This document shows, one piece after another, positions 1 through 19,470 of a stretch of 20,000 nt of DNA; position 1 is the first letter of the stretch, and the number at the start of each line of letters is the position of its first letter. The stretch is from Reclinomonas americana ATCC 50394 (lineage: Eukaryota). The notes below the pieces were generated by a model. The model saw only the letters and a program-made list of their open reading frames with translations. It made no database searches and was not told where the DNA came from. The stretch is from assembly GCA_048213135.1 (NCBI GenBank), contig PS015016.1, forward strand, positions 49,627 through 69,626, given 5' to 3'. The position numbers were made by a program, and so were the translations under genes.

Positions 1-799
1 GGCATGCCCACAAAGTACTGATTGAGGAAGCGCCCGGGATCGTCGCTGGCACCCGAGTACGTGCGCAAGTGCGCATCCATGTCACGATACAGGCCCTCGT
101 CCGGCTGCAGCACCATCACCGCCGGGTGGAAGCTGCACGGCTGCGTCATCACCGCACACAGTCGACCCGGGCACGCAAACACATCGTCGATCGCGCCAAA
201 CGCCATAATGCCCGGCGCCAAGTACAACACTCGTCGGTACTCGGCCAGCCGCCACAGCATAAGCACGCGCGAGATGCGCTGGTACATGGGCGGGAAGTCG
301 TCGGGGGTAGACGAGGCGCCTGCAGCAGAGGCCGCCACTGCAGCGGCCTCAGAGGCGGCCGCACTTGCCGCCGCCGCCTCGTCGACATCCTCAATGTCAA
401 TCAGTCGTGCATTGAAGGTGCTCGAGAGCAGCAGACCGCGCACTCGCAGCGACACGTGGCGAGTGACCAGTGCAGTGACCTCGCGTCGCGTGCCCGAGCG
501 CAGCACCGAGTGCAGTGTCACAAACGCCGCCAACTGCATGCACGCGCGTGTGTGACACGTGTGTGTCTGTGTAATGAGAAGAGCGACGAGGGGGGCGCAA
601 CTGCTTCGTCGTCTGAGCTGATCAGTGTGACAATGGCCTCCTCGCCTGCGCGTGCACGCGGGGTGGTGACAGGCGAGGAGGAGGAGGTCTGTGTTGACGA
701 GGGCGGCTGTGATGTCGAGGAGGCGGCATTCACTGCAGCCACGATGCACACCAGCAGGAGTGCTGCGGTGACACCCGCCGCAAGCCTCCTTGCGCGCAT
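1..799 (-). CDS. GT8-family glycosyltransferase (glycogenin/PGSIP7-8-like) with N-terminal signal or anchor; 3' end runs off the window; DxD motif degenerate
   Basis: ATG at 799, MRARRLAAGVTAALLLVCIVAAVNA; intron 601-534 (GTTGCGC...CAG). Spliced product contains LWRLAEYRRVLYLAPGIMAFGAIDDVFACPGRLCAVMTQPCSFHPAVMVLQPDEGLYRDM...RFLNQYF, which follows the GT8 motif order (LW.L.EY.+V+YLDAD / +D+LF / F..G+.VL.P / DQGFLN.YF). Confidence 0.8.
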
Positions 800-983
800 G
801 GGTGTGTGTGTGCGTGTGTGTGGTGTAGTGGAAGAACGAAAATGCATAGCANNNNNNNNNNNNNNNNNNNNACGGCCGACGACGAGAACGACGACATGGG
901 AATGTCCGCAGGTGCTGTTCGCGGAACTTGCCAGCAGTACCGTGTACATTGGTTTCATCGTTAACATTGCGTGCGCAGACGCC

Positions 984-1739
984 ATGCAAGCAATCTCCAC
1001 ACCCGGCCAGGCATTGTATGCGCCACGGAGTAGTGTCGCTGCAGCCTCGGCTGCTGCCGGCGCCGCCCCGGCATCGGCTGTCCCCTATTCTGCCGCCGCC
1101 GCCGGCGGCATGTCGTCATCGACGACCACAACAACAACAACCACGCCGGGTTACCTTGGCGCACCCCCATCGGCGCCACCACGACCTGGGCGCGCTGATC
1201 ACCCAGCGTCGCGTCTGTTGACGTCGACCACGGCGAGAATGGCGGAGACCGCCACTGACGATTACGATGATGCGGGATTGGACGGAGAGCCAGGCGGACC
1301 GGGAAGCGCCTCACTGCAAGTGCGGCGACAGGAGTTTGATCGAACCGTGTTTATGACGGCGCAGGCGCTGGAGGAGGAGCGGTTGCGCGAGCTGCAGGCG
1401 CTGGAGGCCGATATTGAGGATCTGGCCGAGCTGTTTGAGGTGCGTTCGAGTCATGCGCTACCTCGCGCGCCATCGTTTTACAGTGCACTCACTCGTGGTG
1501 CGCGCTGCCAGGATTTCAATGCGGAAGTGTACGCACAAGCCAAGGACATTGAGACGCTGTCGGATAACATCCAACGCGTGGACGACTACACAAACCAGGG
1601 CTTCCAGGCCGTGCTGCAAGTTTCGTGCGATTGTGGGTCCTCCTTCTTTCCACCCCCTCGCGTGTCTTACCCCTCGTCTGTGCAGGCTCGAAAGCATCAG
1701 ATTTCGGCACGCAAAAAGATGATGTGCTCGGTGATGTAG
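984..1739 (+). CDS. Syntaxin-like Qa-SNARE with no transmembrane helix, ending in CaaX (CSVM)
   Basis: Exons 984-1439, 1512-1619, 1686-1739. The spliced sequence EERLRELQALEADIEDLAELFEDFNAEVYAQAKDIETLSDNIQRVDDYTNQGFQAVLQARKHQISARKKMMCSVM is a typical syntaxin SNARE motif with a zero-layer Q. Confidence 0.85.
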   Translation: MQAISTPGQALYAPRSSVAAASAAAGAAPASAVPYSAAAAGGMSSSTTTTTTTTPGYLGAPPSAPPRPGRADHPASRLLTSTTARMAETATDDYDDAGLDGEPGGPGSASLQVRRQEFDRTVFMTAQALEEERLRELQALEADIEDLAELFEVRSSHALPRAPSFYSALTRGARCQDFNAEVYAQAKDIETLSDNIQRVDDYTNQGFQAVLQVSCDCGSSFFPPPRVSYPSSVQARKHQISARKKMMCSVM

Positions 1740-1849
1740 TAGTTGTGGCGTAATGAACTTTGATTGGCTGTTTTTTTTGTGATTGCCTGCATGCCATCAT
1801 CGTTCATCAACAAGAGGCGGTTCATTATTGCAAAAAAACAAAAACACTA

Positions 1850-4807
1850 CTATGAGCCACTGTCACCGGCGCTGTCAGCCTCCTTGACACCGAACTTTAT
1901 GCCGTCGTCCTCCTCCATCAGCGCAGTGAGGAATCCGCCAATGTTTCGTCGCTTCGGCTCCTCGGCCGACGGTGGTTCGCTCCGCGAGCTGGCGCGCGGA
2001 TCCCACGCCCGCTCGCCGTCGGGCTTCACAGTGAACACCCGTGATGCATTGCGCCGCCGCGGTGGACCAATGTCACCCGCCGCCATTGCTCCCACACTGG
2101 TCCCCATGCTGTTGCGCCCCATTCCACCGCCAATCTGCGGTGGGCCACGCACACGCGGTGGTGGTGCTTGTCGCGACAGCACGTGGCGCAGCCCACTCGG
2201 TTGCAGCATCACGGGCTTCTGCAGCGGCGATTCGTCACCTGCCGCACCACTGTCGTCGGAAATGCCGGAGGTGCCGGCGCCGAATGCAGGAGCAGCGGCC
2301 GACTTTGCAGGAGTGGCCTTGCGCCACACGGGCTCGTATCTGGTGAAGCCACCGACTTGACGCAGAGCCGCTCGCACCTCGGCTGCACACACGGAGCTGA
2401 TGAGTGCGCGTCACACACAACAGGCATGAACAAACACACAGACACGCGCACACCTCTTTGTGGCCGAGCAGAGGAAAACATTCGACCCCGGTCGTCTTGT
2501 TGCATGTAAAAGTCGCTGATATCGGAGATACTTGAGGTGTCACTCTCCGCGTCGGTGTCGTACCGGCGGCGCACGGGACTCGGCACGCGCGCACTCTCCC
2601 TGTTGTACTTGTTTGTCATCATCGACGAGGTGCTGCGGCTGTCGTCGTCGTCCGTGTCGGTCGGCGGCACATGCGTCATCATTACGTAGCGCATGGCAGC
2701 CTCCACCGTCACCAAGTGGAAACCCAGCTCTGAGGCAACAAGCGTGTGTGAGAGACACATTGGGAGAGGACGACATGAGAGCAGAATGCTGATAACTCAC
2801 CTGTGGGTGCCACAGCCTGCGGCATGCACTCACGCATGTATTCGCAGTTGGCAAACACACACCGCGCTTGTGTTTGCACAAGAGCCCAGGCCACCAACGG
2901 CAGCAACTCATCCGTGGTCAGCAGCTGCGCCGTACCGCCTGTGACAAGAAAGAGTCAGTCAACAAATGTTGCGTGTTGTGCGTGTAAGCAGTCTAGCGCA
3001 CCAGTTTGTGAGGCCTGACTCTCCGACGCCGAGTTGGCGGCCGTGGCCACCGATCGCACAAATCCCGAGAGCACATACAGTTTCTCCAGTGGATTGGTGA
3101 ACTGATTGAGCGCATGCAACACTCGTCCACGCTGCGGCAACTCCACCATGCCCACCCAGTCGGCGACGCCAAAATCCTGCGGCGTACGATCCTGCAAGCT
3201 CTCGTAGGCCTCCTCCAGCTGCACGTCTTGCTCCCGGTTGACGGTGCGAATGTGATCAAACAGCTTCTCGTACACTGCCGCGCCAACGGGGTGAGTATTG
3301 TGAAGCACATGAGCATTCAGAGAGAGGAAATCTCACCATAGTGATGCACATACGAATGCATGGCCTTGCTGATCTTGGGTGCCAGCGAGGGATCTGTCTG
3401 GCACGTGGCAGCCGTGCGAACATCGCTGTTGATGTATGCGTCGGTGAACTGGTTGTGCAGTCGGTCCAGCTTGTCAATGGACTGGCGCTCGTAGCCCGGC
3501 AAGAGAATCATGGACCGGTTGAACTCGCCGAGTTTCACGCGCAGTCGCAGGAGGACTTTGGCGCCCTCGCTGCCGGCACACGTCTTCAAAAAGTCTTCCA
3601 TACTGCACGCAAACATACGCATACACACAGACAAGGATGAGGATGAGCATGGAAGTGCCTTGTGGAAGCACTGTCATTGTCCACGCACGCTCGGAAACCC
3701 CATGGAATGATGCTGGTATCCTCGCGCTGTGCAGCAGCAGCAGCAGCTGCCGACGACGATGACGACTTGCCCGCCTGTCCATTCACATGAGCAGCGGCCA
3801 CAGGCACACCGGCGCCAGCCGCCGCCTTTAGATCGTCGACACTGGCCGAGCCGGCCAACGAGCGCGGCGAATGCGTGGCAGACGACGACGACGGACTGAT
3901 ATTGCCCGACGACGACACACTGCCGGCGGCCGCCGCCAGCGCCACAGGTGCATGGTACGGCAACGTACTCAGATCGAGCTTGGCCGGCAACGCACCGCTC
4001 TCCGCCGGTCGGTACTCATTCAACGGGAACGGAATGCTGATCAGCCGCAGCGTCGCCGACGCCGATCGTCTCCGCGAGACCGAATCCGCAGCTGCTGCTC
4101 CTCCTCCATTACCACCACTGTTGCCACCACCAGAGACATCCTCGTAATCATCGTCGGGAGTCGCGGTGCGGTGGTGATGCTGACCAGTGGAGAAACGCGC
4201 CTCCTCGGCCAACACCGGCACTCGCATACCCGTGGGGAAACCACCATTCTGCTCACCGACGTGTCAGCTGCAGAGACAGCTCATCGAGAGCACACAAGAC
4301 TCACCGGTACTGCCACGAGGTATCCATCGGCAATCGTCACCTGCTGATCTCGGCTCGTGATGAAACGACCTCGAAAGTACGGCGACGGGAAGAAAATGTG
4401 TGACACTGTGCAGTCACAGTAAGTCAATGACCCCCATATGTGTGTACAGAGTGCGTGTTTGTGCATGTGTGCGTGTCAGAGAGAGTAGAAGAGGACGATA
4501 CGCAACAGAGTGCATCTCGCCGCCGTGTTTTGCGCGTGGCCGCTGACTCTGACGATGATGACGACATTGCTCCTCCTCCTGCTCCTCCCAGTGATGACAC
4601 ACCAGCACCACCACCACCAGCAAGAGCAGAAGGAGGAGGTGGAGGTGGTGGAGGAGGAGGTTGTGCATTGGGCAAGCCGAGCAGCCACTCACAGCGACTG
4701 GTGGGCAGTGCCACGACTCCACCCATGGCATTCGCTCGTGCAATCTCCTCGCCACACTCGGCACATAGCACACGCAGGAGCGGGTGGTCAGCCAGTGAAA
4801 CCTCCAT
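1850..4807 (-). CDS. VPS9-domain Rab GEF with VARP/ANKRD27-like N-terminal region, no ankyrin repeats; 7 introns
   Basis: Start MEVSLADHPLLRVL...GGVVALP, then SHIFFPSPYFRGRFITSRDQQVTIADGYLV, GFPTGMRVPVLAEE, LRLISIPFPL (VARP-like N-terminus). VPS9 core: VYEKLF...NPLEKL...LTTDELLPLVAWALVQ...ANCEYM...ELGFHLVTVEAAMRYV. All introns GT-AG and frame-consistent. Confidence 0.85.
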
Positions 4808-4891
4808 TCGTTCGTTTGCAGAGAGAGAGAGTGGTTGTGACAGTCTGATCGCGCGAGCTTGACTGCACCACTTCGTTCTCACCCTGTCACC
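4808..4891. promoter_or_regulatory. 84-bp divergent intergenic region (putative bidirectional promoter)
   Basis: Lies between inferred ATGs at 4807 (-) and 4892 (+). Confidence 0.45.
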
Positions 4892-6017
4892 ATGGGCCAA
4901 GATCTGTCAAACATCCACGAGTCTGCTCGACTCGTAGAGTTGCGCACCACACACCACGCAGTCGTTGAATGTGTGGCTGACACGCGCGCACCCAGCTCGA
5001 CTCTGATGCCTCCGCCTCCACGTTCCTCTCCTCTTCCTCCTCCTCCTCCTGCTGCTGCTGCTCCTCCTCCCACTGCTCCTGCTACTGTGACAGTGACAGA
5101 AGCAACAGCAGCAGCGCCAGAAGCCGAAACAACACAGGTCACTGGCGCATATCGCCTCTTTATCTCTCTCCTCCCTGTCTGACAGAAGCACACACAGAAG
5201 CAGGAAGAGAAACCACCACCTCGTGGCAAGGGCAAGGTCAAGGGCGGCCTGAACATCATTGTGGCGACAGAAGGACGCTTTGTGCTGGAGGAACCTCGTG
5301 GGAATGCGCACGTGTCGTTTGGACGCTCGGCACCGGGTGGAAAGCCGCTGTTGGCGCCCTCGGAGGCACTCTACATGCACGGCATGCGTCGTGCGTGTGT
5401 GAAGCGAAAGGCCACCGATGCCAACAATATCAAGATCCGTGATCTGTACGGCATGTGCTCGGCCGTTCGTGTGGCGGCCGGCGACGTGCGGGATCCGGAT
5501 GTGCGGATGGATTGGGGAGAGTTTGCGGCGTACTCGTTGTTGCGACAGGACGCGGTGGCGCGGTTGCGTTTGTCGAGCAGGCGGCAGCAGCGTCGCGGTC
5601 GTCGCAGTCGACACCACGGCTCGTCGGTGCTGCACTATGCCGGTGGACGGTGGAATTCGAGACTTGCCGATGATGCAGAAGAAGGAGAAGAAGCGCAGGT
5701 GGAGCAGATGGATGAGATGGAAGAGGTGCCGCAGACCATGGTGGACGTCTTTCAAGCTGCAAGCACCCGTCGACAGATGGAGACGCAACGTGAGCACAAG
5801 CTGACGGGAGTGGCCTTGGTCGTACCGTGCGTACCACATGCTTGTCGTTGCTGCCTCCTGCGGGTTTTCTCGTTCACTCACGCATCGCAGCATGGAGGAG
5901 CGCCTGACTACGGATATTGCGCGTGCCGCGTGTAATCGCAGCGGAGTCTCCTTGCTGGCCATGTCGACGCCACGCAATGTCACCATCTATCGCACGGCCG
6001 ACGGCATTAACGAGTGA
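4892..6017 (+). CDS. TSEN54: tRNA-splicing endonuclease subunit Sen54-like protein
   Basis: VLEEPRGNAHVSFGRSAPGGKPLLAPSEALYM resembles the Sen54 N-terminal motif (V...+G....+G.....L.PEEALYL), followed by FAAYSLLR. Introns 4939-4995, about 5138-5197 and 5827-5890. Last exon MEERL...VSLLAMSTPRNVTIYRTADGINE*. Confidence 0.65.
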
Positions 6018-6020
6018 CGT

Positions 6021-7011
6021 TTACTTGCGCGTACGTGCCCGTTTCTTTGGTGGCGCCTCTTTTTCTTCTTGCGACGGTGGAGGCGCGGCCGCCGTGGATC
6101 CAGACGCCTCGTCGGCTGTTCGCTTGTCGCCTGCCTTTGCTGCTGCCGGCGGGGATGGCAATGGCGACTGCAGGCCGTGCTTGGCACGAGCGTGAAACAC
6201 CCACAACGCCCGCTCCAGCTGCCGCGGAGTGACGCCAAGCTCGGTGGCGCGCTCGCACATGGCCGTCGCGTAGCGCATGTAGTAGGGAACAGTGAAGGCC
6301 ACCTTGCCCAGCTCTGGCACCAAGTGCGCCATGTCCTCATCGAAAAACGGCACACCCTCGGTCATGCACGAGAGGAACGCCGACGCCGTGGCCGGTCCAA
6401 CGCCGCTCAACTCGCACAGCGTCGTAATCGCCCCACGCAGATCGCCGTCGACCTTGAACAGCCGATAAGCACGCTCCGATAGCTGTCGCACAGTGGCATC
6501 GTCGTTCGAGGCCACTGCACCACAATAAGCATGATACGACACGACATGAGACAAACACGACGACTCAACCGAGAGCGCCATTCCGCGGTCGGAACTGCAC
6601 GCAGAGAGTGAGGAACATAAGGACAATGGTAGCAACAGTTGCTGCTCCCACCTTGCCACGAGCCATCTGCGCGGAGAGTAAGCACGTGCATGCATGCAAA
6701 GACAACGATCTTCCCTCCCAACCAAACCTTCCAGGAAGTAATGATCGACGCCTCGTCACGAGTCATGTACACAGCATCGTCGCCCACTCGCTGCTGCACG
6801 GCCGCACGAACCTGCACGCCACAGACACACGCGCGTGAGACAACAACAACACAAGAGGTCGACATCGACCTCCAGCTGCAACCTTGCCAAACGCCTCCTC
6901 CATCTCGCGCAGCTTGTCGCCAGCCTTCCCCGGCACAGCTCGCACTGCGGCATCGTATGCCGCCGCATCGGAAAGCTGCAACACGGCCTCTGCGCTCTCC
7001 ACAGGCCACAT
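6021..7011 (-). CDS. Amun-like helix-hairpin-helix (DNA glycosylase-like) protein; 4 introns
   Basis: Spliced MWPVESAE...YMTRDEASIITSWK-MARGK-FRPRNGAL-VASNDDATVRQLSERAY...AITTLCELSGVGPATASAFLS...VPFFDE...LERALW. WK..RGKFRP and L..L.GVGPATASA are the family signatures. The basic C-terminus PPKKRARTRK looks like an NLS. Confidence 0.85.
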
Positions 7012-7059
7012 ATGAGAAGTCAATCAGTCGACAGAGTGAAAGCTTCTCTAATATAACGA
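7012..7059. promoter_or_regulatory. 48-bp divergent intergenic region (putative bidirectional promoter)
   Basis: Lies between inferred ATGs at 7011 (-) and 7060 (+); AT-richer than its flanks, contains TAATATAA. Confidence 0.5.
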
Positions 7060-10000
7060 ATGGTCAAGCAGCAGTGGTGGTTGCTTGTCGCGCTGGTCGC
7101 TGTTGCCTGGTGCACTGTGAGCTCCACTGCGAGCAGCACTGGTGGTGTGCCGCACTATGTCGATGTGCACGGAGTGCCACTCCACGTCGAACCCTCCTCT
7201 CTGCATCTCGACGCGGGTCCCAGTTGCGTGTGTGTGCGAGAGAGAGCAGAAGGCGCATTGTGTGCACATAAAGACACTCACATCTGCGTGTGTGTGTGCA
7301 GCTGTCACGAGTGTTTCTCCGGAGGTTTGCATTGCATTTGCATTCTGTGCTCTGCATCTTCTTCCTCCAACTCACTGCACACACACACACACACACACAG
7401 AAAATCGTGCGCGTGTTGGATCACCAACTGACAGTCAAGGGCACTGGGTTTACGACGACCGACAAGGCGCAGTTTGCGGTCGGTGGCCACGGATGCGAGA
7501 CCGCGGTCGATGACATGGTGGTGTCGACTGTGACGGTGACTGCGGCCGATCCCACCACCATGGTGGTGGCCATGTTTGCGCATGTGTCGGCAGGCGGGCG
7601 CTACTGGTTGTGCGTGCAGTCGCAGGGCATGGGCCCGTGGCTGAATTTCACAAACAGTCACGTGGAGGTGCTGAGTTGCGTTCGTTGGACACACACTGCT
7701 CTTGCGTCTCTGCTTCTCTTCTTGCTTTGAGGTTCACACGGTGTTTCTTTTTGTGCAGTGGGTATGACGAGCAGCTTTTATCCGCGTCTGCTGGACAACC
7801 ACGGTCCGAGCATGTTGCAGTTGTATGGCACGAGTCTGCCGATCACCGCGCCGGCGACTGCGTTCCGCTTTATTGATGCCACTGGCGGCAACAACTTTTC
7901 GTGCCAGGTGCTTTTCTTTTTTGCAATCCCCTGCTCTCGCTGCGATGCATGTGCTTACTGTGTTCGAAAAAGACCGCGGATCCCAAGCCAGCGATTAACA
8001 CCATCACCATTACCGCGGTGCCGCAACCGACCGCCGAGCATGTGACGCTGCAGCTGACACCCACCACCACCTTCTCGGGTCTGGCGTTCCTCTGCGTACT
8101 GTGCGTTGTGGTCGATGGGGGTGTGCTGTTGTCGACGGCGGATTGCTGACTTTTTGAACACAGCTTCCCGGGCATGGACATTTACGAGCCCGCGTCGCAC
8201 GGCGGTGCTGTGCCGTTGCCGATTCACATTACGGAGAACGCCGAACCCACTCTGACTGGCCTCACGCCGCTGCAGACGAGCCTGTGGTCCTCGATCACTG
8301 TCAGCGTGCAGGGCACGCAGCTGAGGTGAGTGTTTCATCGCTTCCCCCCTTGCCGACAGCCAAGCTGAGCTCGTGACGCGATGCAGCGCGATGGAGGACG
8401 TCATTGTCATCAACGCTGTGGGCAACTGCTCGCCGCCCACTGCTTCCCCGGACTCGGTGGTAAGTGTGCACTCCTGTCCGTCATCGTCGTGCAGTGTTTT
8501 TTTCTCACGCTGCTGTCTTTCGCAGATCCAAGGCGTGCCCGACATTGTCAGCGACACTGCCATTGACTTTATGCTGAAGATCGGCGGTTCGTACAACCTG
8601 CAAGTGTGCATCAAGTTCACCGGTCAGGCAGACTACACCATGGTTCCTGGTGGACCCATTGCGGTGCTCTGTTGCGTTCGCCTCCCTGCGTGTGCACATC
8701 CTCCTGCTCTTCCTTCTGACGACGATTCGACTCGTTCTTTTGTTTCACAGCGCCTTCGGTGAAGACTTTTACGCCGCCGACAATCGCGCCCAACATTCTC
8801 ACGGTCATCACCTTTACTGGAGACAATCTCGCGGGGTGAGTCGTCTCGCGGCTGATGTCACTGCTCTCATCGCCGCAAAAGGTCTCACCGTGCGTGAACA
8901 GTGGCACACAGCAGCTGCTGGTCACCGACGCCAACAACAACTGCGTCGCGAACTCGGCCAGCATCACGGTCGGAAAGACGGCCGCACCGGATGCCCAGCA
9001 TCTCACCTTTGAGGGTGCGTTTGCATGCGCTTATTTGTCTTTCATCATGGCAAGCAGAGCGTGACTAAATTCTCCGCTTGTGCAGTGACGACCACGGCCG
9101 CTGCTGGCACCAGCTATTCCATGTGCATCAAGTTGCGTTGCGACCGGCTGCGTGACTCTTGCCACACCTTCAGCACATCCAACTTACCCCGCATGCTGAT
9201 AATGTAGATACTCTGGCGCTCCGGCCTTCGCCCCGCTGACTGGATCATCGCTCAAGGTGGCGACGTCCACCCTCACCGGCATCGCGCCGGGACTCGTGTC
9301 ACTGACTGCGGCGACCACGGTCACCATCTCGGGCACCGTTCTCGGCGGCGTCACCGACGTGATTGTCATTCAGTCCACACAAACCTGCGCCTCTGGCCAG
9401 ACGGTCCGTCTCGCCATTTCGCCACTCCCTGTGTCTCTTGTTATCTCGCTTCCTTCCCCTGACTGGTGTATGTTTGTGCAGCCGCTGGCGCCGGTCACCA
9501 AGGTCACTCCGTCCGCAAACCAAGTGACGTTCTCCGTGCAGCCGACCCAGGCTGGCGTCTACAGCGCATGCGCTCGTCTTGCCACCGGTGCTGCGTACAC
9601 GGCGGTGCCTGGCACATTCAGTGCTGGCGCCAGCACGAGCGGAGTGCAGCCGAGCACGATTCCGGTGGTGGCTGTCACCACGATGAGCATCTCTGGTGTG
9701 GATCTGGACAACTCGACCGTGCTCACGGTGGTCGCGGCCGGCGAAACTTGCATGTTCACCAACCCTCCGCCACTTCCTGTTGCGTCTGCCGCCGCCGCCG
9801 CTGTGCCCCATCCACCTCCGATCTCCACTCACTGCTGTCGCGTGTAGAACGGCTTGCAACTGTCGAACTTTGCCGTGGTCTCGCCGCAGCTGCTCACCAT
9901 TGGAGTGAGCGCGCCGTTCCCCGCCGCCAACTACAAGTTCTGCATCATGCTGTCGCCGGCCGGCTACTCGGATGTGACGAATGGCGGCTTTGCGGCCGCG

Positions 10001-11974
10001 GTGCCGACCGGAACCAAGATCACACCCGATCAGGTGCCGCTCGGCATTGCTTCCACCGTCACTGTGCTGGGCACGCTGTTCTCGCCGCTGGTGAAGATCT
10101 CGGCCGTGCTGCCCAGCGACACGTGCGTGACGCAGACGCCCAACACGCCAGTTTCGTGTGCATCGTGATCAGTGTGTGTGTGCGTGCGTGTTCTCATCAA
10201 TTCACAGGCGTGGGTCACCATCAACAACCTCATGCTGGTGTCGTCGAGCTCCATCACGGTCACTGTGCTCGGCCAGAACACTGTCGGCATGGTCAAGTTC
10301 TGCCTGCAGGCGTTCCCCAACTCCAACTACATGGACGTGCAGAATGGCGTGCTGTTCATCGCGCCAGGAGCACTCACCGCCAACGCCTTCCCCATGAACA
10401 TTGGTGTCAGCGTGCAAACGCAAATCAGTCTGTACGGCAACAACCTGTACGTGCAAGATTCACAGCTCTTCATCCTCGACGATGGCGTGGCGTGCGACAA
10501 CATGGTTTGTCGGGCTCATTTTTTCTGCTGTCTGCATTGTGCTGCGCGGTCTCATTATCTCTTCTCGAACAGGACACTGTTACCGGTTCGCAGTACGCCA
10601 CCGTGGGCCCGCTGACGGGCGGCCCGTCCACCATGTTCGCGCAGATCACGGTGTCGCAAGCTGGCAACTACATTCCGTGCATGCGTGTCACGGGCGCACC
10701 CAAATTCAAGACTGTCCCCGGCAGTCCGCTGATGGTGTTGGGTAAGTGGCTTTCCTTGTGCGATGTGGATTTGTGAAGGGCGGGTGCTGAACGGCCNNNN
10801 NNNNNNNNNNNNNNNNNNNNNNNNNNNNNNNNNNNNNNNNNNNNNNNNNNNNNNNNNNNNNNNNNNNNNNNNNNNNNNNNNNNNNNNNNNNNNNNNNNNN
10901 NNNNNNNNNNNNNNNNNNNNNNNNNNNNNNGCGTGGCCGGTGACGTGTGCGTTCCGTCAGCGCTTCATCATTTCGCTCACGATGCTGCCATTCATCATCA
11001 GGCCCGCAAGCCACCGAGTTTGTGCCGCACCTGACGTTCTCGTCGCCGGCCTTTGTGCATCAGGTGACGGTCACCGGCCAGGGTCTGTCATACCTCGACT
11101 CTGTGGTGGTCATCAACGCGGCCGGCGCGTGCACCAATCCTGTGTTCGCCGACGGTGTTTCGATCAACACACCGTTCACGAGCACCGACGCCACGCAGCT
11201 GTACTTTGGTCTCACTGGTGCGTGTTTCGGCGTGCATACATGCATGCATGCGCTCGCACTCCACTCACCGACTGTGTCACCAGTGAATACGGCCGGCACC
11301 TACTCGTACTGCATCAAATACCCGCAGACCACCGCCTACGTGCCCATTGGCTCCTCATTCTCCGTGCAGCGGTTGTACGTCAGCGATTTCTCGCCGTCGT
11401 TGATCCCCACCAGCCAGTCGAGCATCAGTGTCACCATCACTGGCTCGGCACTGCGTGCCAGCGACATGATTCGTGTGATCCCCTGGACGAGCCCGTGCAT
11501 GGGTACCGACCTCGTCAACGCCAATGGCATCCAGATCGGCGCCGTCAGTTGCGTTCTCTCTCGTACATCTCATTTGCGTGTGGCAGTCGATCTCACCTCG
11601 TGACGCACAGCTGCCAATCCGAGCGGCTCGAGTCTGGTGGTGCCGGTTATGGCGAACACGCCCGGTACTTACCGCATCTGCATTCGCTTCACGGAAACCG
11701 TTGAATTCGGTGGCATTGTGGGTGGCCAGCTGGTGGTCGAAGGTCTACCGCTTTGTCGTCGTCTGCTTTTTGTGTGGTCTTTCCGTCGTTGACCCCCTTG
11801 CGTGTCTCAGGCTCCAATGGCAGCGGCCTGTCGCCCGGCGTCCTGGCCGTGGTCATCATCGTCCCCATTGTGGCTGTGGCGGTCCTTGTGGTGCTCGGCT
11901 TGTGGTGGTGGCGCCGACGTCGCGCACCGCGCAATGTCGACGCCTCGGACACGGGTCCGTACGGCACCCTGTGA
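7060..11974 (+). CDS. Large type I membrane protein: signal peptide, 10 IPT/TIG-like Ig-fold repeats, TM helix, short tail ending YGTL; 19 introns
   Basis: Signal MVKQQWWLLVALVAVAWCTVSS. Each repeat starts P.vt.v.P...+tv.G..l and ends G.Y.+C+.+. TM GVLAVVIIVPIVAVAVLVVLGLWWW followed by RRRR. All 19 introns are frame-consistent; the N-gap falls in a phase-1 intron. Confidence 0.85.
7378..7399 (+). repeat. (CA)n microsatellite directly before an intron acceptor
   Basis: cacacacacacacacacacaca followed by g; a similar (TG)n run lies near 19176-19192. Confidence 0.9.
10797..10930. other. Assembly gap (other gaps at 852-871 and 17687-17706)
   Basis: Runs of N. Confidence 1.
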
Positions 11975-12106
11975 GCCACAGCTCGACATCGAGGCCCCTC
12001 CACTGCTCCCTTTCCTCTGGACTATGAAATGAATCGCAACCCTGCTGTTTTGCCATGTGTGAGTTGTCTTCAGCGCGTCCTGCAGTCACGTTCATCAGAC
12101 ACCGCA

Positions 12107-14588
12107 ATGGCATCGTCACCCCGATCGCCACCGTCGCTGAGCCGCTCCACACCACGCTCTCCACCAGCCGCGTCCTCGGTTCGCTCACCATCCTCCCTCG
12201 GCAGCGGGAGTGGGAGTGGAGGCGGCTCGCCACCACGATCTGCACGACAAGGCGCCTCGCCCAGCGCCAATGTGGCAGCCGCCGCAGCTGTGGCCGCAGC
12301 TGCATCGCCGGCGACCACCGACGGCAACGCAGCACGTCGAGCCAATCAACTCTTGACTGCGGCAGTGGAGCGATGTCGACGCGGCAGCAAAGAGGTGCGT
12401 GGATTGGCGCGCACTCTTCAACAATCATCTTCAGTCTCACTTCTCTCTCTGTGTGTAGGTGGATCTGTCGATGAAAGCACTGGGCGGTTTGCCGATTGGA
12501 GAGAAGCGTCTGCAGGAGGCATGCAAGCAGCTGTCATCTCTCGACGTGCAACGACTGAACATGTCGGGTGTATCTGGTATTGAATACTTCGTCTCTCTCA
12601 CACACACGCGCGTGTGTGCACTGCTCTCACGCCTGGCTCGTGGCAGTGTTTGTGCGAAACTCGCTGGGAGACACGCAGGCGCGCCTCATTGCACGATCGT
12701 TTTCTCGACTGACGACTCTGGTGATCTCCAACAACGAGGTCCGTCTTCTTCCTCTGTCATGCTCGCTCTCGCCCTTGTGCATGCTGATGGTGAGACGCCA
12801 CATTGCAGATCTCGTTCGAGGGCGTGCGCTTCCTGGCCACCGGCTGCCCAAACCTCACCCATCTGGATGTTGCGTCGCGCTTCATGCCACGCACTCCAGC
12901 TGCCCCTCACCGGTCACTCACTCGGCGTGCGACCTCAGATATCGTACAACATCATCGCATGCGACGGTGTCAAGGAACTGGCATCGCGACTGCCGCACCT
13001 GACCTGGCTCGACGTGCGAGGCAACGATGTCGGCAACGATGGCGCCGCTGTTATCGGCGAACAGATGCCTCAACTTCGTTTTCTGAGTATCGAATGTTGC
13101 GTGGGGTTTTTTGTGGGTGCCTCCGATCCATCGTGGTGCTAACACCTGCTGCGGGTCGGTGCAGCCAATGTGATTGGCACGGTCGGCACCATGGCTCTCG
13201 CCAAGCTGTGCAACTTGACAGAGCTGAGTCTCAGTGGCAACTCGATCGGCGACGGCGGCTGCTACGTTCTCGGGCGCACCTCGTCTCCACTCAAGAAGCT
13301 CAACATGTTGCGTTGCACGTCAAGTGTGCGCAGCTCATAGCCTGTCACTCACACGCGTGCATGTGCCATTGCAGATCATGTATGTGTGCATATCGTGCCT
13401 TCATCATCACCGTTCTCCTCACGATGCTCACTTGCGCAGACAATGTCGTCACACACACTGGCCTGATCGACGTGCTGCGCTTACTCACCATGCTTTCGTC
13501 GCTGAATCTGCGAGGTTGCGAGATCGGTCCCTCGGCCGGCTACGCGATCCAGGAGTACTTGTCGCCGCACCTGACCGACCTGGACCTGGCCTACAACAAC
13601 CTGAACGACTCGAGCATGGAAGACATGGCGGTGGGAGCCACGACGACACTCATCGGATTGCGCACGCTTGTTCTGCGCGGCAACAGCATCGCTGACGAGG
13701 GTGCCAAGCATTTGGCACAATTCCAACAGCTCACCACCCTCGACATCTCCTGCAATCCCGTGGGAGCAGCGGGTGTGGCGGCTCTTGGCCGCGGTCTGAC
13801 ACGACTCAAGACACTACACATTGGGGAGGTGAAGTGGGCCTGGGACTGTGCAGCGGAGCTGGCACGCGGTCGATGGACGTCCACGCTGCGAACGTTGGAT
13901 GTGCGTGGCACGTTTGATTTGAGTGACGGCGAGGCGAGGCTCATGCTCGAGTGCTCCAACCTCACCGCCCTCAACATTTCCTGTTGCGTCGCATCTTCTT
14001 GCTTGTCTCTCTGCTTGTGTATATTCACGGCATGCTTCTATTTTCTGCAGCCACGGGAGTCTCACGGAATGCCGCACGCGGTCTGGCCATGCAGCTGCCG
14101 CTGCTGGTCAAACTTGATACCACCGACGGTTTGCAACCAGTGCCCGTGTGCAGTGGCGCTCCGTCTGCTCCTCACCTTCTACGCCCGCAGAGGAGATTCG
14201 TCTGGCTGCGCAGCCGTATTTGGCACTCAACTACGAACCGTTCCGTTGATTGTTGCACTCGTTGCTGTGCGATGGTGCTGACTCTCCGCTCCGCAGCTTC
14301 CTCATCGAACGTGCCCGCTCGGTGCTGCTGTCTGCACAACGAAAACAACAGCTGATCAGCAGCGGCAGCAGTAGTGGCGGCGGAAGCACGCGAGGCGTGG
14401 ATGCCGACGCCGGCTCTCAGTCGTCGGACGTCGACACACCGCACAGCACCGGCACCGAGGCCTCACCGTCGCAGTTCCGCAGCCAGTCGGCCAGCGGCTT
14501 CGACATAATACGAGTGCTGGACATTGTGCTGACGCAGACGCTGAACGAGCGCTCACGGAGAGTACGCGCGGCTCGCGATCCCACATGA
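12107..14588 (+). CDS. Leucine-rich repeat protein (RI-like LRRs) with Ser/Pro-rich N-terminus; about 10 introns including a 5-nt microexon
   Basis: Repeats LTHLDISYNII, LTWLDVRGNDVGNDGA, LTELSLSGNSIGDGG, LKKLNISYNVV, LTDLDLAYNNLND, LRTLVLRGNSIADEGAKHLA, LTTLDISCNPVGAAG. The donor of intron 2 (about 12568-12578) is uncertain. Confidence 0.88.
13375..13379 (+). other. 5-nt microexon (ATCAT)
   Basis: Flanked by TTGCAG| and |GTATGT; inclusion restores the frame and the LRR consensus LKKLNISYN. Confidence 0.8.
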
Positions 14589-14684
14589 TGCACTCGCGAG
14601 GTGCAGCGTCCACTCCAGTCGTCTTTACAGTCTCTCCTTCTTTGTTGGCATCGTCCAGCAAAAAAACACCAGCGAATTATTGTT

Positions 14685-16788
14685 TTAGTACAGTGTGGCA
14701 TTCCTAAATGACACGAATAATCTCGACGAGCCGGTAAAGTCGACTCCGCGCAGCGTAGCACGCTCAAACGTCGCGTTCTGCAGGTCGGCATCGCGAAAGG
14801 TCGAGTGCGTGAGGATGGCCGCGGAGAAATCGCCGCCAGCCAGCTTGGCCGACGTGAAGTCGCAGTTGACCAGCTTGGCCTCCACAAACAGACGCCGCTG
14901 CTTGTCGTCGTAGCACGCTGTGCGGCGAGGTAGCAGTGAGTCGAGAATTGGCCCGGCGATGGAAGGCCAGTGGGAGAACGCAACAGAGATCGCAGTGTCG
15001 AAACGAGACGCCCGACAGGTCCGCGTGACTGAAATTGATGACAGTGAGGTGTCGCAGCTGCAGCGAGCCAAAGGCGGTGGTGCGGAGGTCGCAAAAGGTG
15101 AGCTGCAAGGTGCCACCGGGTGGCGCCTTGCTTATCAGTCGACACAATTCGTCTTGCGCGACCACACTGCGCGTGGCAGTCGGGGTGTGTGATGCCGACC
15201 GCGCCAGTGCCTCCTTTTCGCGGTGCTCCTTGATGCGACGCAGACGACGCCCGACAGCGCGTCGCAGTCCATCTAGAGCAAAAAACTGCGCCTCCACAAA
15301 CAGCTGCTTCAGGCAGCGTTCGTCGGTGGGATCGACATCCAGCACGCCTCCGCGGCCATCCACACAAGTGCGCAGGAAGCGCAAGATGTGACGGAACAGA
15401 TCGGGCTCACGATCCAAGAACACCTGCCGCACCACATCGGTGAGTCTCATCGGCGTTGCGCTTTCCATCTCTCCGTTGACGACAAGGAACAAACCCGTCC
15501 GTGCGAATCGGTGGCAAGATCGAAGCGACCGGAGAACATGGCGGCGAGCATCGAGTTACCGTCGCGACTCAGCGTGTCGCGCGAGGTCACAAATGTCTCG
15601 CCGCCCACATTCAGCTCCACCATGGTCTCCGACCCCGTTGCCGCTCGCGAACCGCCATTCAACACTTGCACAAAGTGCAGCGGATCGGTGGACTCGCACA
15701 CCGGCGCCAGCTCCTGCATCGTCGTCACGGATTGAGAGAACTGCACCCACAGCCATCACACCACCACGCTCTTCTCTTCTTACGCAACATCCGGCTCCCA
15801 CTCCAACTCGTACACCTGCGTGTTGCTCGAGGCGCCACTGTCTCCCCTGCCTCGGCTCCCTGCAGAAGCCGCAGCTGTCGACGAGGAAGGCGCTCGGCCC
15901 GCGGCCACTGCAGCCGCTGCCGCCGCCGCTGCTGCAACAGCAGACGTCGACATGGGTCCACTGCTTGTCGAGCGCGGCCGGCTGCGCAACGCCCCCGCAC
16001 CGCCCAGCGGCTGCACATCGTCGCCGACCGACAAGTACACCATGTCTGCTTGCCGCATCCGCTCACCGGCCGCCATGGCCGCCGCCTCCTCCGCCTCTGC
16101 CTCGGCCTGTCGGCTCGCATCGCCACCGCTTTCATCGCCATCACCGTTGCCATCAGCAGCAGCAGCAGCAGCACCATAGTCGTCGTCCGAATCCTCATCG
16201 GATCCCGTGCCCGACTCCCACGACGGCGTCGACGGCCGCATAGCACCAGCCTGTGCACCTGTGACGACGACAGGCTCCTCCCTGCGTGAGCATCGCGGGT
16301 GAGCACAGTGCGTCACTCACAATCCTCCCAACACCAGACGCAACTGGATTGGCGGCGGCTGATGCAGCGGTGGTGGTGGTGGTGGTGGCAGCGGTGGGGA
16401 GGACGGCGAGTGATGCGAAGACAGAGGTCCAGCGGCCGCCACGGCACCAGCCGCGTGATAGCTATGATGATGATGAGGACGATGCACACGCGCCGCCGAT
16501 GGTGGCGACGAGGAGATGGGCGGCATGGAGGCAGCAGCCGCCGATGAAGACGACACAGACATGGCGGAGGCGGAGGAGGCCTGCGCGGCGGCAGCAGCAG
16601 CTGCGGCCGCCACTGCTGCTGCGGCCGCGGCGGCCACCTCATTGCCGGTGACTGCGAGCAGTGCAACCTCGGGCGAGCTGGCCTCGCGGGGCATCATTGG
16701 GCCGCCACGGTCGGGCGGAGGGAATGCGTTGAGTCGACGAGGCCGTGAGCGACCAGCGCCAGTGCCTGTGCCGCCGCCGCCGCGGTGA

Positions 16789-16820
<32 letters not shown>

Positions 16821-16949
16821 TTCGTCTTCTTCTTCGTAGGGTTCGGTGCTGTCGACGTTGCCGGTGGAGAGGAAGGAGGCGAGGTCGTCGATGCGAGAGG
16901 TCAGCTCGATGGAGGGTCGAGGCGCACCCGCTGCATCCTCCTCGCTCAT
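14685..16949 (-). CDS. BTB/POZ (KCTD-type) plus pentapeptide-repeat protein (KCTD9/FIP2-like) with long low-complexity N-terminus; 4 introns
   Basis: VELNVGGETFVTSRDTL...SMLAAMFSG...DSHGR-VFLDREPDLFRHILRFLR...LFVEAQFFAL is a T1-type BTB. Then INFSHADLSGVSFRHCDLS...AKLVNCDFTSAKLAGGDFSAAILTHSTFRDADLQNATFERATLRGVDF pentapeptide repeats. Start codon inferred. Confidence 0.85.
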
Positions 16950-16987
16950 CGGACTGGCAAAGCAATAAAGGACAAGGAGCGATGATT

Positions 16988-17631
16988 TCATTTAGTCGAC
17001 GACGATGCGACGGAGCTGTTAGTTGCATCGCCGTTGGTGTGTCGTTGCTGCGTTGACGGCGGCTTGCCACGTGTGGCGAGCTGCTGTGGCACTTGAGCGT
17101 TGCCTGCGGCACTGCGGCACATGGCCTGCACCGAGCGCGTGCGGCGACGCTCGTCGTCCAACATGAGCCGGTGTTTGTCGACGTCCTGCTTCATGGCCTC
17201 CAGAGACTGCCGTGCCAGTTCCGTGGCCTTGAACCCGAGAGTCTGTCAAATGATTCATCAGCACAACCGCGGCGACAGGCGACGAGAGGCAAGCACAACG
17301 CAACGGCGACCAAGGCATGAATCTCCGACTCTTCTCGAACAAAATGCAACTGTACACGCTCGAGAATGTCGCGCTTCTCCTTCACAATCGCCTGCATTCC
17401 ACATCAGCAAGTAAGGAACACAGTCGCACGTGTGCAAGAGAATACGTCCAAGGTGCACACCTCGGGATCAAACACGGGTGACCGCTGCGACAGCCGAGTG
17501 CCGCCCAGGCGCGACGGGCTCGCCGACGGCGCTGCACTCGGACTGAATGGCGCCGTGAGCGCAATCCCTGCAGGCTCTCCGCCTTCAGGAGCTGTACCGT
17601 CCGGTGGCGGCTGTGGCTACCCCGCAACGGT

Positions 17632-17662
<31 letters not shown>

Positions 17663-19470
17663 GAAGGGAAGGAGAGGAAGGGAAGGNNNNNNNNNNNNNN
17701 NNNNNNACGAGGCTGGTGACTGTAACCGCGCTGGATCCATGCACGGGACGAGGAGTGCACTGTCGGGCACGGGAAGATCAGCGGGCTGGTCGTCACGATG
17801 CAGTTGCACTTGAATCAAAAACTCCTGCGCCGGCAAGTGTCAACGCTCAGCACCATGCATTACACACACCCGGACGGTGGCCTGCACTCACCGGTAGACA
17901 TAGGCTGTTGTCGGCATAATAGTACGTTTGGGTGCTCTCATCGAGAACCGTGTTAAAGTCGCCGCTCTGCAACAGGTTGGCCACCACGTGCGGCGGCGCC
18001 GATTGACATCGACACAACTGCTCTCGACAATGAGCCAGAGCCAACTCGAAACGTGAGAACGCGACTCGCACACACCTTGCCAAGAAATACTTTACACAGG
18101 AAAAAGTAGCGGAAGCGACCGGCCTCGTGCTCGTTCTCCATCGCTAATGAATGGCTTCGCGGAGGCGTCAGAAAAGGCAAGCACACATGCGTGCACTTCG
18201 AAGCAAGCAGCGCACCGTGTGAGGCCGGTAATGTCTTGTTGTACAGCGGCGGCACGCCGCAGGATCTCGAGCACCACACGCTTGTCGCCCGTGAGACCCG
18301 TGATGTAGTCGGGCAGCCTGCGTGACGATCACTCGGTGAGACGGGAGATCGCAACGGCGAGTTGAACATGAGGCGCCTTGTCACGCAACACCACGTCAAA
18401 GTCGACAGGCATCACATCGTGGAACACGGCAGGATCGGTGTGTGTGCCAACGACGCAGATGCGAGCCACATCCGACACCTCGCACTGCAGAAAGAGACCC
18501 TTGAAGAGATTGATCTCCACCTCCAGCCGCTGCTCCAGACACACATCCTCCACCGTCTGCTGGAAGTCGCGCTTCAGCACCGAGTTCTCCATCTGGTACA
18601 CGTTGGTGACGCGCACAGAGAGATCCTTGCTCGGATCGGCCGACGGCCTCAAGCTGGCCATGATGGCATTCGCACACTGCCGCCCCGCCCGATCAACGCT
18701 CAGCTTCCACGACGACAACACGACAACAACAACACAAGACACGTGCGCGCAACTCGTTCAAAGAGCGCATGCCCTGGTCTGACATACACCAGATTGGCAC
18801 GCCGGCCGGTCTCCCGATACACGTGCTTGCCGATCTCACTGAGCACACCGGCACACTGCACCGCACTCTGCACATTCTTAATCGCATTGATCTTCTTGAC
18901 CGAGTAGGCCAGCCGCATGTCGCGCTCCCGTTCCAGCTTGGTGAAGAAGGTGACCATGAGACGCATCAGACTAAAGTCGACCTCCTTGAAACGACGCACA
19001 AAGTGCGTGCGCTGCATTGAGTCTTGCAGTCGCGACGAGGTCAGACACGCCATCACTCGTCGTCGCAGGCGTCGCCTGCGCGCAGCCAGCCACTGAATGC
19101 GGTTCTCCGACTCGCTCTGTGAGTGTTTCTTCCACTGCCGAAAGTAGCGCACGAGCTCGTCAAAGGCCTCTGTGAGTGTGTGTGTGTGTGTGTCAGTGAG
19201 AAGAAGAGTGATTGTGTGTGTGTGCATTGATGCAGAGTGCGTACCAAACTCGGTGCCCGCACTGGTCAGCACGTTCTGGTGCCAGATGACGTTGCCGGGT
19301 ACGCCAGTGAGCACCTCAGAGAGGAGAATGTCTGTGTGTGTGCGCGCGATGTGTGAGAGCGCGCAACCATCAACCGATCATCATTCATGGGAGAACGTGT
19401 GTGTGTGCGTGTGTGTGCGTGCTTGTGTGCAGAGCGGGGACGCACCGGCGAGCGTGACAAGCTCACTCAT
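16988..19470 (-). CDS. Protein with a degenerate PARP-like (ART-fold) domain and helical/coiled-coil flanks; about 10 introns
   Basis: Ordered PARP-like motifs: VRVTNVYQMENSVLKRDFQ; KGLFLQCEVSDVARICVVG; RYFFLCKVFLGK; FNTV...TYYYADNSLCLPEFLIQV. One intron spans the gap 17687-17706. Confidence 0.6.
17637..17662 (+). repeat. (AG)n microsatellite inside an intron, next to an assembly gap
   Basis: Direct reading of agagagag... Confidence 0.9.

Follow-up and report, generated by a model that had tools for sequence, protein, structure and literature searches.

In a window of 20,000 nucleotides (nt) from Reclinomonas americana ATCC 50394 (the whole stretch analysed here, positions 49,627 to 69,626 of contig PS015016.1, assembly GCA_048213135.1), 23 of the 60 predicted introns with an identified donor start with a highly uniform heptamer, most often GTTGCGT, that carries its conserved G at +6. 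We give about an even chance to a reading made of two joined parts, namely that the introns are real, belong to the major GT-AG type and carry a second donor typical of the lineage, (C)(A/U)/GUUGCGU (the slash marks the predicted cut), and that this donor is used in a register shifted by one base rather than through a bulged T. In the 5′ splice-site profiles known to us and in the literature consulted, donors form a single mode, with G at +5.

The genes were rebuilt by hand on both strands with the aid of a frame-checking script, the introns being predicted from sequence alone. Ten genes were obtained in 11 model pieces (G1 to G9 and G4b), with G8 split by a run of N; after splicing, none of the 11 gene models contains an internal stop, and intron lengths range from 48 to 114 nt when a gap-containing intron of 260 nt is excluded. 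Donors were sorted into class A, defined as GTT[G/T/C][C/A]G[T/C] (n=23), class B, comprising the other GTT donors (n=6), and ordinary donors, starting with GTV (n=31). The original prediction had named 23 sites with the class A pattern, and every one of them carries it, coordinate and strand included: GTTGCGT at 16, GTTGCGC at three, GTTTCGT at two, and GTTGAGT and GTTCCGT at one each. Its estimate of about 23 among about 61 introns (38%) is likewise reproduced by the rebuilt models (23/60, or 38%); a further intron, in G8, has its donor within the run of N at 17687-17706. Class A donors are present in 10/11 gene models and in 9/10 genes, the exception being the one-intron fragment G9, and within the window this supports the earlier proposal of a routine second donor class rather than a rarity. 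Controls on the cut sites included a motif-blind, dynamic-programming gene finder, which scored codon usage and required only GT/GC...AG, and an alternative-donor scan in which the acceptor was kept fixed and all in-frame GTs from 30 nt upstream to the first stop were considered. The class A introns are as follows.

534..601, minus strand: G1, GTTGCGC, 68 nt, phase 0; joins two frames without a stop; the sole in-frame alternative GT lies 30 nt upstream
1620..1685, plus strand: G2, GTTTCGT, 66 nt, phase 0; in frame and stop-free, hence called from its signals only; the motif-blind finder ends the exon here
4406..4506, minus strand: G3, GTTGCGT, 101 nt, phase 1; frame restored; no alternative in-frame GT
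4939..4995, plus strand: G4, GTTGCGC, 57 nt, phase 2; frame restored; CTGAC 15 nt before the 3′ splice site
6515..6569, minus strand: G4b, GTTGAGT, 55 nt, phase 1; gapless against 20 homologues at the junction; no alternative GT
7223..7301, plus strand: G5, GTTGCGT, 79 nt, phase 1; a 23-nt micro-exon comes next; other possible donors are GTCCCAGT (-6) and GTGTGCGA (+9)
7675..7758, plus strand: G5, GTTGCGT, 84 nt, phase 1; paralogous intron position; the motif-blind finder ends the exon here
8671..8750, plus strand: G5, GTTGCGT, 80 nt, phase 1; paralogous position as for 7675; the motif-blind finder ends the exon here
9132..9207, plus strand: G5, GTTGCGT, 76 nt, phase 2; position and phase as in the ordinary GTGCGT intron at 8101
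9779..9847, plus strand: G5, GTTGCGT, 69 nt, phase 0; frame kept; a single alternative GT, at +24; CTCAC 17 nt before the 3′ splice site
10151..10207, plus strand: G5, GTTTCGT, 57 nt, phase 0; frame kept; the motif-blind finder ends the exon here
11548..11610, plus strand: G5, GTTGCGT, 63 nt, phase 1; frame restored; the motif-blind finder ends the exon here
12869..12938, plus strand: G6, GTTGCGT, 70 nt, phase 0; LTHLD/ISYN keeps the 25-residue period of the leucine-rich repeats (LRRs) and their consensus residues; no alternative GT
13096..13164, plus strand: G6, GTTGCGT, 69 nt, phase 1; LRFLSIE-S-NVIG keeps the LRR consensus Asn; LRR position and phase as for 13983
13307..13374, plus strand: G6, GTTGCGT, 68 nt, phase 2; the frame closes only with the adjoining 5-nt micro-exon 13375-13379
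13983..14050, plus strand: G6, GTTGCGT, 68 nt, phase 1; no alternative GT; the motif-blind finder ends the exon here
14240..14296, plus strand: G6, GTTCCGT, 57 nt, phase 2; frame restored; CTGAC 15 nt before the 3′ splice site
16282..16344, minus strand: G7, GTTGCGT, 63 nt, phase 2; frame restored; ambiguous, as an in-frame GTGAGTGA at +24 would give a 39-nt intron
15741..15788, minus strand: G7, GTTGCGT, 48 nt, phase 0; read-through stops at once (GAT GTT GCG TAA); the motif-blind finder ends the exon here
14918..14984, minus strand: G7, GTTGCGT, 67 nt, phase 1; no alternative GT; C-terminus aligns with homologue P0001
18677..18753, minus strand: G8, GTTGCGC, 77 nt, phase 0; frame restored
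18318..18389, minus strand: G8, GTTGCGT, 72 nt, phase 2; no alternative GT; the motif-blind finder ends the exon here
17243..17304, minus strand: G8, GTTGCGT, 62 nt, phase 0; frame kept; CTGAT about 15 nt before the 3′ splice site; splicing to another acceptor 15 nt further on would also be in frame

The GTTGCGT-type motif acts as a specific signal for donors. The window contains 27 copies of GTTGCGY compared with 13.6 +/- 3.7 expected, and 0/200 dinucleotide-preserving shuffles reach this number, whereas GTGCGY is not enriched (64 copies versus 74.8 in the shuffles). The copies of GTTGCGY are unevenly distributed between the strands (23 sense, 4 antisense; binomial p=3e-4), and those on the sense strand are for the most part used: GTTGCGT serves as a donor in 16/17 sense copies and GTTGCGY in 19/23, as compared with 8/20 for GTGCGT and 5/8 for GTGAGT. 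When A or T precedes it, GTTGCGY is a donor in all 18/18 sense copies. The four sense copies that are not used in our models have G at -1 at 1382 (plus strand), 5563 (plus) and 19367 (minus) and C at 15990 (minus); since used and unused copies differ in this base (Fisher p=6e-4), the identity of the -1 base seems to matter for the use of GTTGCGY as a donor. Three of these unused copies are exonic, where they encode Leu-Arg, and one lies within an intron; the copy at 5563 could open an in-frame, stop-free intron of 117 nt in a low-complexity part of G4.

Compared position by position, class A does not merely reproduce the ordinary donor mix. Its intron side is nearly fixed (T at +3 in 23, G at +4 in 20, C at +5 in 22, G at +6 in 23 and T at +7 in 20 of the 23 sites), and on its exon side -1 is A in 10, T in 10, C in 2 and G in 1, with C in 13, A in 6, G in 4 and T in none at -2. 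Ordinary donors (n=31) have G at -1 in 27, G at +3 in 22, C, A or T at +4 in 14, 10 and 6, respectively, G at +5 in 27 and T at +6 in 23; they include GTGCGT (8/31) and GTGCGC (2/31). Class A is also the more uniform of the two, with a GCGY core in 19/23 sites versus GTGCGY in 10/31 ordinary ones, and its C at +5 (22/23) is more frequent than the C at +4 of ordinary donors (14/31; p=9e-5).

The largest difference between class A and all other introns concerns the last exon base, which is G in 1/23 and 33/37, respectively (Fisher p=2e-11). When the exon side of class A is compared with the ordinary profile, the fit summed over the 23 sites is +9.4 bits if the profile is slid by one base and -61.5 bits if it is not; taken one by one, the slide is preferred by 23/23 class A, 0/6 class B and 5/31 ordinary donors. 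In the slid alignment, the class A columns -2, -1, +1 G and +3 U fall on the ordinary columns -3, -2, -1 G and +2 U, and +4 to +7 (GCGU) fall on +3 to +6. Most columns agree; +2 departs from the slid profile, since only a U there makes a GU possible. The earlier description of class A as an ordinary signal displaced by one base is therefore supported, but its wording as an ordinary donor with one extra T does not hold.

The extra-T wording corresponds to a register proven at human sites, bulge +2/+3 (PMC4856993): the same U1 would pair with G+1 and U+2, a U at +2/+3 would bulge out, and GCGU would be read as ordinary +3 to +6. Such an arrangement would account for the fact that 21/23 class A heptamers equal a locally used hexamer plus one T, and the stricter core of class A could then compensate for the cost of the bulge. 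However, a bulged T keeps the pairs of -1 G (to C9), +1 G and +2 U, so that G would be expected at -1, and its near-absence there favours the shifted register instead; the strongly negative score of the unslid profile points the same way, and standard U1 is folded with a bulge at only 1/23 class A sites. We consider the bulged T quite improbable.

How could a shifted donor work? The class A consensus would be the ordinary (C/A)AG/GUGCGU slid by one base into the intron. One reader, whether a small nuclear RNA (snRNA) or a protein, would then most likely bind the same GCGU core and the same exon bases in both classes. Because class A has a U where the ordinary class has its +1 G, cleavage could use no GU other than the one lying one base upstream, and the cut would be made there. 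In other words, CA/GUUGCGU would be equivalent to CAG/GUGCGU in which a U replaces the ordinary +1 G and cleavage takes place one base earlier.

What kind of molecule might this reader be? Duplex energies were computed by nearest-neighbour folding with the standard U1 5′ end as given in PMC4856993, pseudouridine and proteins being ignored. With this U1, the canonical register is adopted by 31/31 ordinary and 0/23 class A donors, and the median free energies are -6.1 kcal/mol for ordinary, -4.8 for class B and only -1.4 for class A donors (range +0.5 to -5.6). Standard U1 would pair with A at the position where class A has its near-invariant +5 C, the opposite of what selection for such pairing should produce. 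Poor pairing with standard U1 and the near-invariant +5 C together predict an altered donor reader in this lineage, one that would demand an almost perfect core. Of the altered U1 or U6 snRNA, U1C/Luc7 or Prp8 behaviour suggested in the original prediction, the duplex energies thus lend indirect support to a changed reader and to nothing more specific. It would carry a G opposite +5 C, for example a U1 5′ end of the ACGCAC type instead of the universal ACUUAC; with such a hypothetical U1 the medians become -6.5 for class A and -9.9 for ordinary donors. The sequence CA/GUUGCGU folds in the shifted register with both the standard and the hypothetical U1, with +1 G paired to C9 and U+2 mismatched. 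The window itself holds no snRNA detectable with Rfam at E<=1; the only matches were sub-threshold and resembled microRNAs, small RNAs or small nucleolar RNAs.

A change of U1 has precedents elsewhere (Roy and Bowser, bioRxiv 10.1101/2022.06.08.495308): in Entamoeba, a U1 with AACAAAC fully matches GUUUGUU donors, and in M. balamuthi, a U1 with ACGUAC places a G opposite +4C. Both are models for the altered reader predicted here. An alternative needs neither shift nor bulge: class A may have a dedicated reader, either an additional U1 paralogue or a sole U1 whose 5′ end is one base longer (ACGCAAC type), which would pair contiguously with GUUGCGU. The major spliceosome would then contain two matched 5′ splice-site systems, ordinary U1 for one and a U1-like or re-tooled ACGCAAC reader for (A/U)/GUUGCGU, in the manner of U1 and U11. 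The near-invariance from +3 to +7 fits full Watson-Crick pairing of this kind, and so does the very poor pairing of class A with standard U1 in every register, while the preference for A or T at -1, unlike the ordinary G, looks as if this base faced another partner; the complete pairing between Entamoeba U1 and its donors is a precedent for such a match. On the other hand, no snRNA that could show it was detected in the window, the resemblance of the class A exon profile to the ordinary one slid by a base would have to be a coincidence if the readers were separate, and class A and ordinary introns have identical branch and acceptor signals. We regard a dedicated reader as unlikely, although less so than a bulge; if true, it would define a third snRNA-specified intron class beside those dependent on U1 and U11, serving more than one-third of introns.

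Several considerations weigh against the one-base shift and the altered reader that goes with it. The profile-slide test is driven mainly by the single -1 column, and the T found at -1 in 10/23 sites is not explained by a shift, in which this base would face U10 and A should be favoured. Standard U1 folds only 3/23 class A donors in the shifted register, and weakly; a good shifted fit requires the ACGCAC U1, which is hypothetical and was invented for the purpose. Elsewhere, T. trahens and the Mamiellales prefer +4C with a standard U1 (bioRxiv 10.1101/2022.06.08.495308), which means that +4C or +5C need not imply a changed U1 and that the prediction may fail. Finally, the hand-made gene models were curated with knowledge of the motif, and the scope is one 20-kb window with about ten genes.

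Are these introns really cut at the GT that opens the heptamer? It is conceivable that GTTGCGT is a conserved element, such as a splicing enhancer, near a real donor, and that the cut is made at another GT or GC. Room for such an error does exist: 9/23 sites have another in-frame GT within 15 nt, and the two G2 introns, at 1440 and 1620, are both in frame and stop-free and therefore rest on their signals and not on the frame. One donor-like alternative was found, GTGAGTGA (GTGAGT), 24 nt after 16344, which would leave an intron of 39 nt. No other alternative GT resembles a recurrent donor, however, and 6/23 sites have no other in-frame GT at all (none within 15 nt at 14/23). Removal of class A introns gives an open frame, an observation that is uninformative for 1620, and cutting at this GT leaves 0 stops in all coding sequences. 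The motif-blind finder, for its part, placed the exon end exactly at 9/23 class A sites.

Comparison of the predicted proteins with homologues and among their own repeats narrows the position further. When the spliced G4b product is aligned with its 20 homologues, no gap falls at three junctions or in two micro-exons, of 15 and 25 nt (...SWK/MARGK/FRPRNGAL/VASNDD... versus ...EWKMKRGTYRARNLVLVRGNDD...), and the donor at 6569, a class A site, is thereby pinned to the codon. After splicing, the C-terminus of G7 aligns end to end with the 291-residue homologue P0001 (41% identity, E=1e-48); at the junction at 14984 the Ser is aligned, and a 4-residue gap follows two residues on, in a low-complexity loop. 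In G5, an intron at the end of a repeat occurs in phase 1 right after V-L or V-E in four repeats, with class A donors at 7675 and 8671 and ordinary ones at 10742 (GTAAGT) and 11743 (GTCTAC), and a second recurrent position, the repeat Cys codon plus one codon and 2 nt, is occupied by class A at 9132 and, at 8101, by an ordinary GTGCGT. In G6, splicing at 12869, 13096 and 13307 restores the LRR consensus, with its period of 24-26 residues, residue by residue (LTHLD/ISYN, LSIE-S-NVIG and LKKLN-IS-YN). As far as the predicted proteins go, seven class A junctions (6569, 7675, 8671, 9132, 12869, 13096 and 13307) are thus fixed at the level of the residue. The original prediction had held that reading frames and conserved motifs fit a cut at this GT, and at these seven sites homology, paralogy or LRR periodicity concurs. 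Mis-set boundaries are in our view very improbable, and we infer that cleavage in vivo takes place at the first GU of the class A donor.

Some of these junctions border very short exons. The 5-nt micro-exon ATCAT of G6 (13375-13379, plus strand) lies between the class A intron 13307-13374 and a GTATGT intron at 13380-13439; it alone closes the frame, and its product LKKLN-IS-YNVV parallels LTHLD-ISYNII of the neighbouring repeat. Those of G4b, at 6652-6666 (15 nt) and 6570-6594 (25 nt) on the minus strand, are confirmed by the gapless homologue alignment, and that of G5 at 7302-7324 (plus strand, 23 nt) supplies TVTSVSPE, parallel to the repeat start SPSVKTFTPP (IPT/TIG-like). Tandem acceptors 3 bases apart, GAG/CAG in each case with both in frame, occur on the minus strand at 4249-4254 and 18018-18023 and are candidates for NAGNAG-type alternative splicing.

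Apart from the donor, class A introns are built like the ordinary ones. All 23/23 start with GT and end with AG. By pattern match, a CTNAY branch-like motif is present in 19/23 class A and 27/31 ordinary introns, at a median of 16 and 17 nt from the 3′ splice site, respectively, CTCAC being the commonest form; in the intron 15741..15788 no such motif was apparent by eye. The base at acceptor position -3 is C in 21/23 class A and 26/31 ordinary introns, median lengths are 68 and 66 nt (66-69.5 across the three classes), and intron phases are similar in all three. With branch point, 3′ splice site and length in common, the same spliceosome is expected to finish splicing of both. Microsatellites of the (CA)n and (GT)n type are common in introns of the window (7325-7400, 19170-19244, 19332-19445 and others), often between the branch-like motif and the acceptor.

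Could the shared 5′ terminus reflect common descent instead of a mode of recognition? A recently spread, introner-like family would explain the uniform heptamer and the similar lengths (48-101 nt). Yet in a blastn-short comparison of 59/60 introns (the 260-nt gap-holding intron was left out), only two class A pairs have matches of 11-15 nt once the first 8 and last 6 nt are set aside, the other intron-intron matches being CA or GT repeats, and in paralogous repeats class A introns occupy positions that they have in common with ordinary introns. With no shared sequence beyond the termini, we rejected this explanation, which has next to no probability left.

Class A is not the only group of donors that starts with GTT. 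The six class B donors, with the heptamers GTTTGCA (twice), GTTTGTC, GTTTGTT, GTTTGGT and GTTGCAG, have G at -1 in 6/6 and G at +5 in 5/6, and behave as ordinary-register donors with T at +3.

6812..6882, minus strand: class B, G4b, GTTGCAG, G at -1; 1-residue gap against homologues at the junction
6667..6727, minus strand: class B, G4b, GTTTGGT, G at -1; SWK/MARGK colinear with 20 homologues
7325..7400, plus strand: class B, G5, GTTTGCA, G at -1 and +5
10505..10572, plus strand: class B, G5, GTTTGTC, G at -1 and +5
14129..14190, plus strand: class B, G6, GTTTGCA, G at -1 and +5
15424..15494, minus strand: class B, G7, GTTTGTT, G at -1 and +5; HGR/VFLDREP gapless and colinear with BTB homologues

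Human 5′ splice sites recognized in a shifted register were reportedly described by Roca and Krainer in 2009, and bulge registers of human sites are said to have been set out by Roca and co-workers in 2012. In the human shifted register, much as proposed for class A, all pairing with U1 is offset by one base from the cleavage site and +1 G lies opposite C9, while cleavage still takes place at the GU. The consensus, CA/GU-N-... with +6 G and +7 U, agrees with class A; a model oligo for it, ACA/GUCAAGUAUA, is given by Tan et al. (2016, PMC4856993). There are differences nevertheless, for human shifted sites are few and atypical and have A where class A has its +5 C, which standard U1 cannot pair, whereas class A comprises 23/60 introns with a near-fixed heptamer. 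In the human bulge +2/+3 and bulge +3 registers, as in class A, GUU is followed by an ordinary core and the G is moved from +5 to +6; these registers are predicted for 68 and 51 sites among 201,541 (PMC4856993, Table 3), and the human bulge register would keep the -1 G that class A, with 38% of introns, nearly lacks. All validated non-canonical registers together make up 1.5% of human sites (PMC4856993), in agreement with the earlier statement that displaced registers are only rare exceptions there.

Other eukaryotes provide parallels of a different kind. Entamoeba (GUUUGUU) and M. balamuthi (GUGCGC) also have a lineage-wide atypical donor, with a GUU start or +4 C, which Roy and Bowser explain by a changed U1, and class B, with its six donors (GTTTGT/C/G), looks like the Entamoeba type. 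Each of those lineages, however, uses a single transformed consensus in the usual register, and Entamoeba has few introns, whereas here two donor classes coexist in an intron-dense genome and one of them is displaced by a base. The GTGCGY donors of the Mamiellales and the +4C donors of Thecamonas trahens share the +3G/+4C flavour of the ordinary class described here, and have CTSAC-type branch motifs near the 3′ end, like our ordinary introns (Irimia and Roy 2008, PMC2483917); both are intron-poor with a single consensus, and the available text mentions no GTTGCGT class in them.

A second, highly uniform donor class beside the ordinary one is also what U12-type introns represent. Their donor is [A/G]TATCCTT, and they have a branch motif of their own, of the TCCTTAAC type. 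This donor fits no class A site (+3 T, +4 G, +5 C), and the class A branch-like motifs are CTCAC, CTGAC and similar ones, as in ordinary introns; the U12 branch pattern was not searched for. In a literature search, GTTGCG or GUUGCG was named as a donor nowhere among the matches listed. Class A would thus consist of major-spliceosome introns read in a non-canonical register, and a genome paper reporting it may exist.

A genome in which such a displaced, near-invariant heptamer served about 40% of introns would provide a natural experiment on the choice of cleavage site where U1 binds out of register with the cut, it would inform how the donor is handed from U1 to U6, and it would offer a second test case, after Entamoeba, for the co-evolution of U1 and splice sites. 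At a practical level, gene finders with a single donor model would mis-annotate such a genome, given that the motif-blind finder was correct at only the 9/23 sites mentioned above.

The surrounding sequence is eukaryotic, with about 60% G+C and N runs at 852-871, 10797-10930 and 17687-17706. The second of these runs lies inside the G5 intron 10742-11001 and could conceal an exon; the third conceals the G8 donor already mentioned, whose intron shows a polypyrimidine and CT-repeat tail and an acceptor at 17617-17686. The G+C content is 62% in coding DNA, 71% at third positions and 55% in introns. Its introns and spacing set the window apart from Plasmodiophora, with introns of 55.7 +/- 7 nt, from Mastigamoeba balamuthi, with 1.3 kb between genes, 137-nt introns and 3.4 introns per gene, and from Thecamonas trahens, described as intron-poor. 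Genes are packed to such an extreme, with spacers of -4 to 184 nt between coding regions, that transcripts must overlap or undergo very tight processing. The stop codons of the convergent genes G4 and G4b are 3 nt apart (6015-6023), the G8 stop overlaps the first ATG of G7 on the same strand (ATGA, 16988-16991), and the remaining intergenic spacers measure 48-184 nt.

As to the products, G1 is a protein that we take, from reading its sequence, to be GT8-like. G2 encodes a small coiled-coil protein ending in CSVM that we presumed to be SNARE/syntaxin-like; neither search confirmed this, as no Pfam SNARE was found on G2 exon 2 and no SNARE or syntaxin in a PDB search with the read-through G2 translation. 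Its C-terminus, Cys-Ser-Val-Met (1727-1738, plus strand), resembles a CaaX prenylation box, here in the place of a transmembrane anchor. G3 has a weak VPS9 match (E=0.0011, below the cut-off) and G4 a weak Pfam match to the Sen54 N-terminal domain. G5 is a repeat protein of 1,100 residues with a signal peptide, a transmembrane segment and weak IPT/TIG matches (E=0.011, below the cut-off); G6 contains RNI-type LRRs (LRR_6, E=1.5e-19), and G7 combines BTB_2 (E=5.7e-5) with pentapeptide repeats (E=4e-23). No family match was found for G8 and G9, word-index homologue searches with exon 4 of G8 and exon 4 of G7 came back empty, and a metagenome scan gave no relatives of G8. G4b (6021-7011, minus strand) is HhH/OGG-like, with 20 homologues (P0019-P0038). 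Its closest relatives are unnamed proteins of about 190-230 residues, one of them labelled in its source as coming from a Chloroflexia bacterium, and this gene, although rich in introns, might have come from bacteria.

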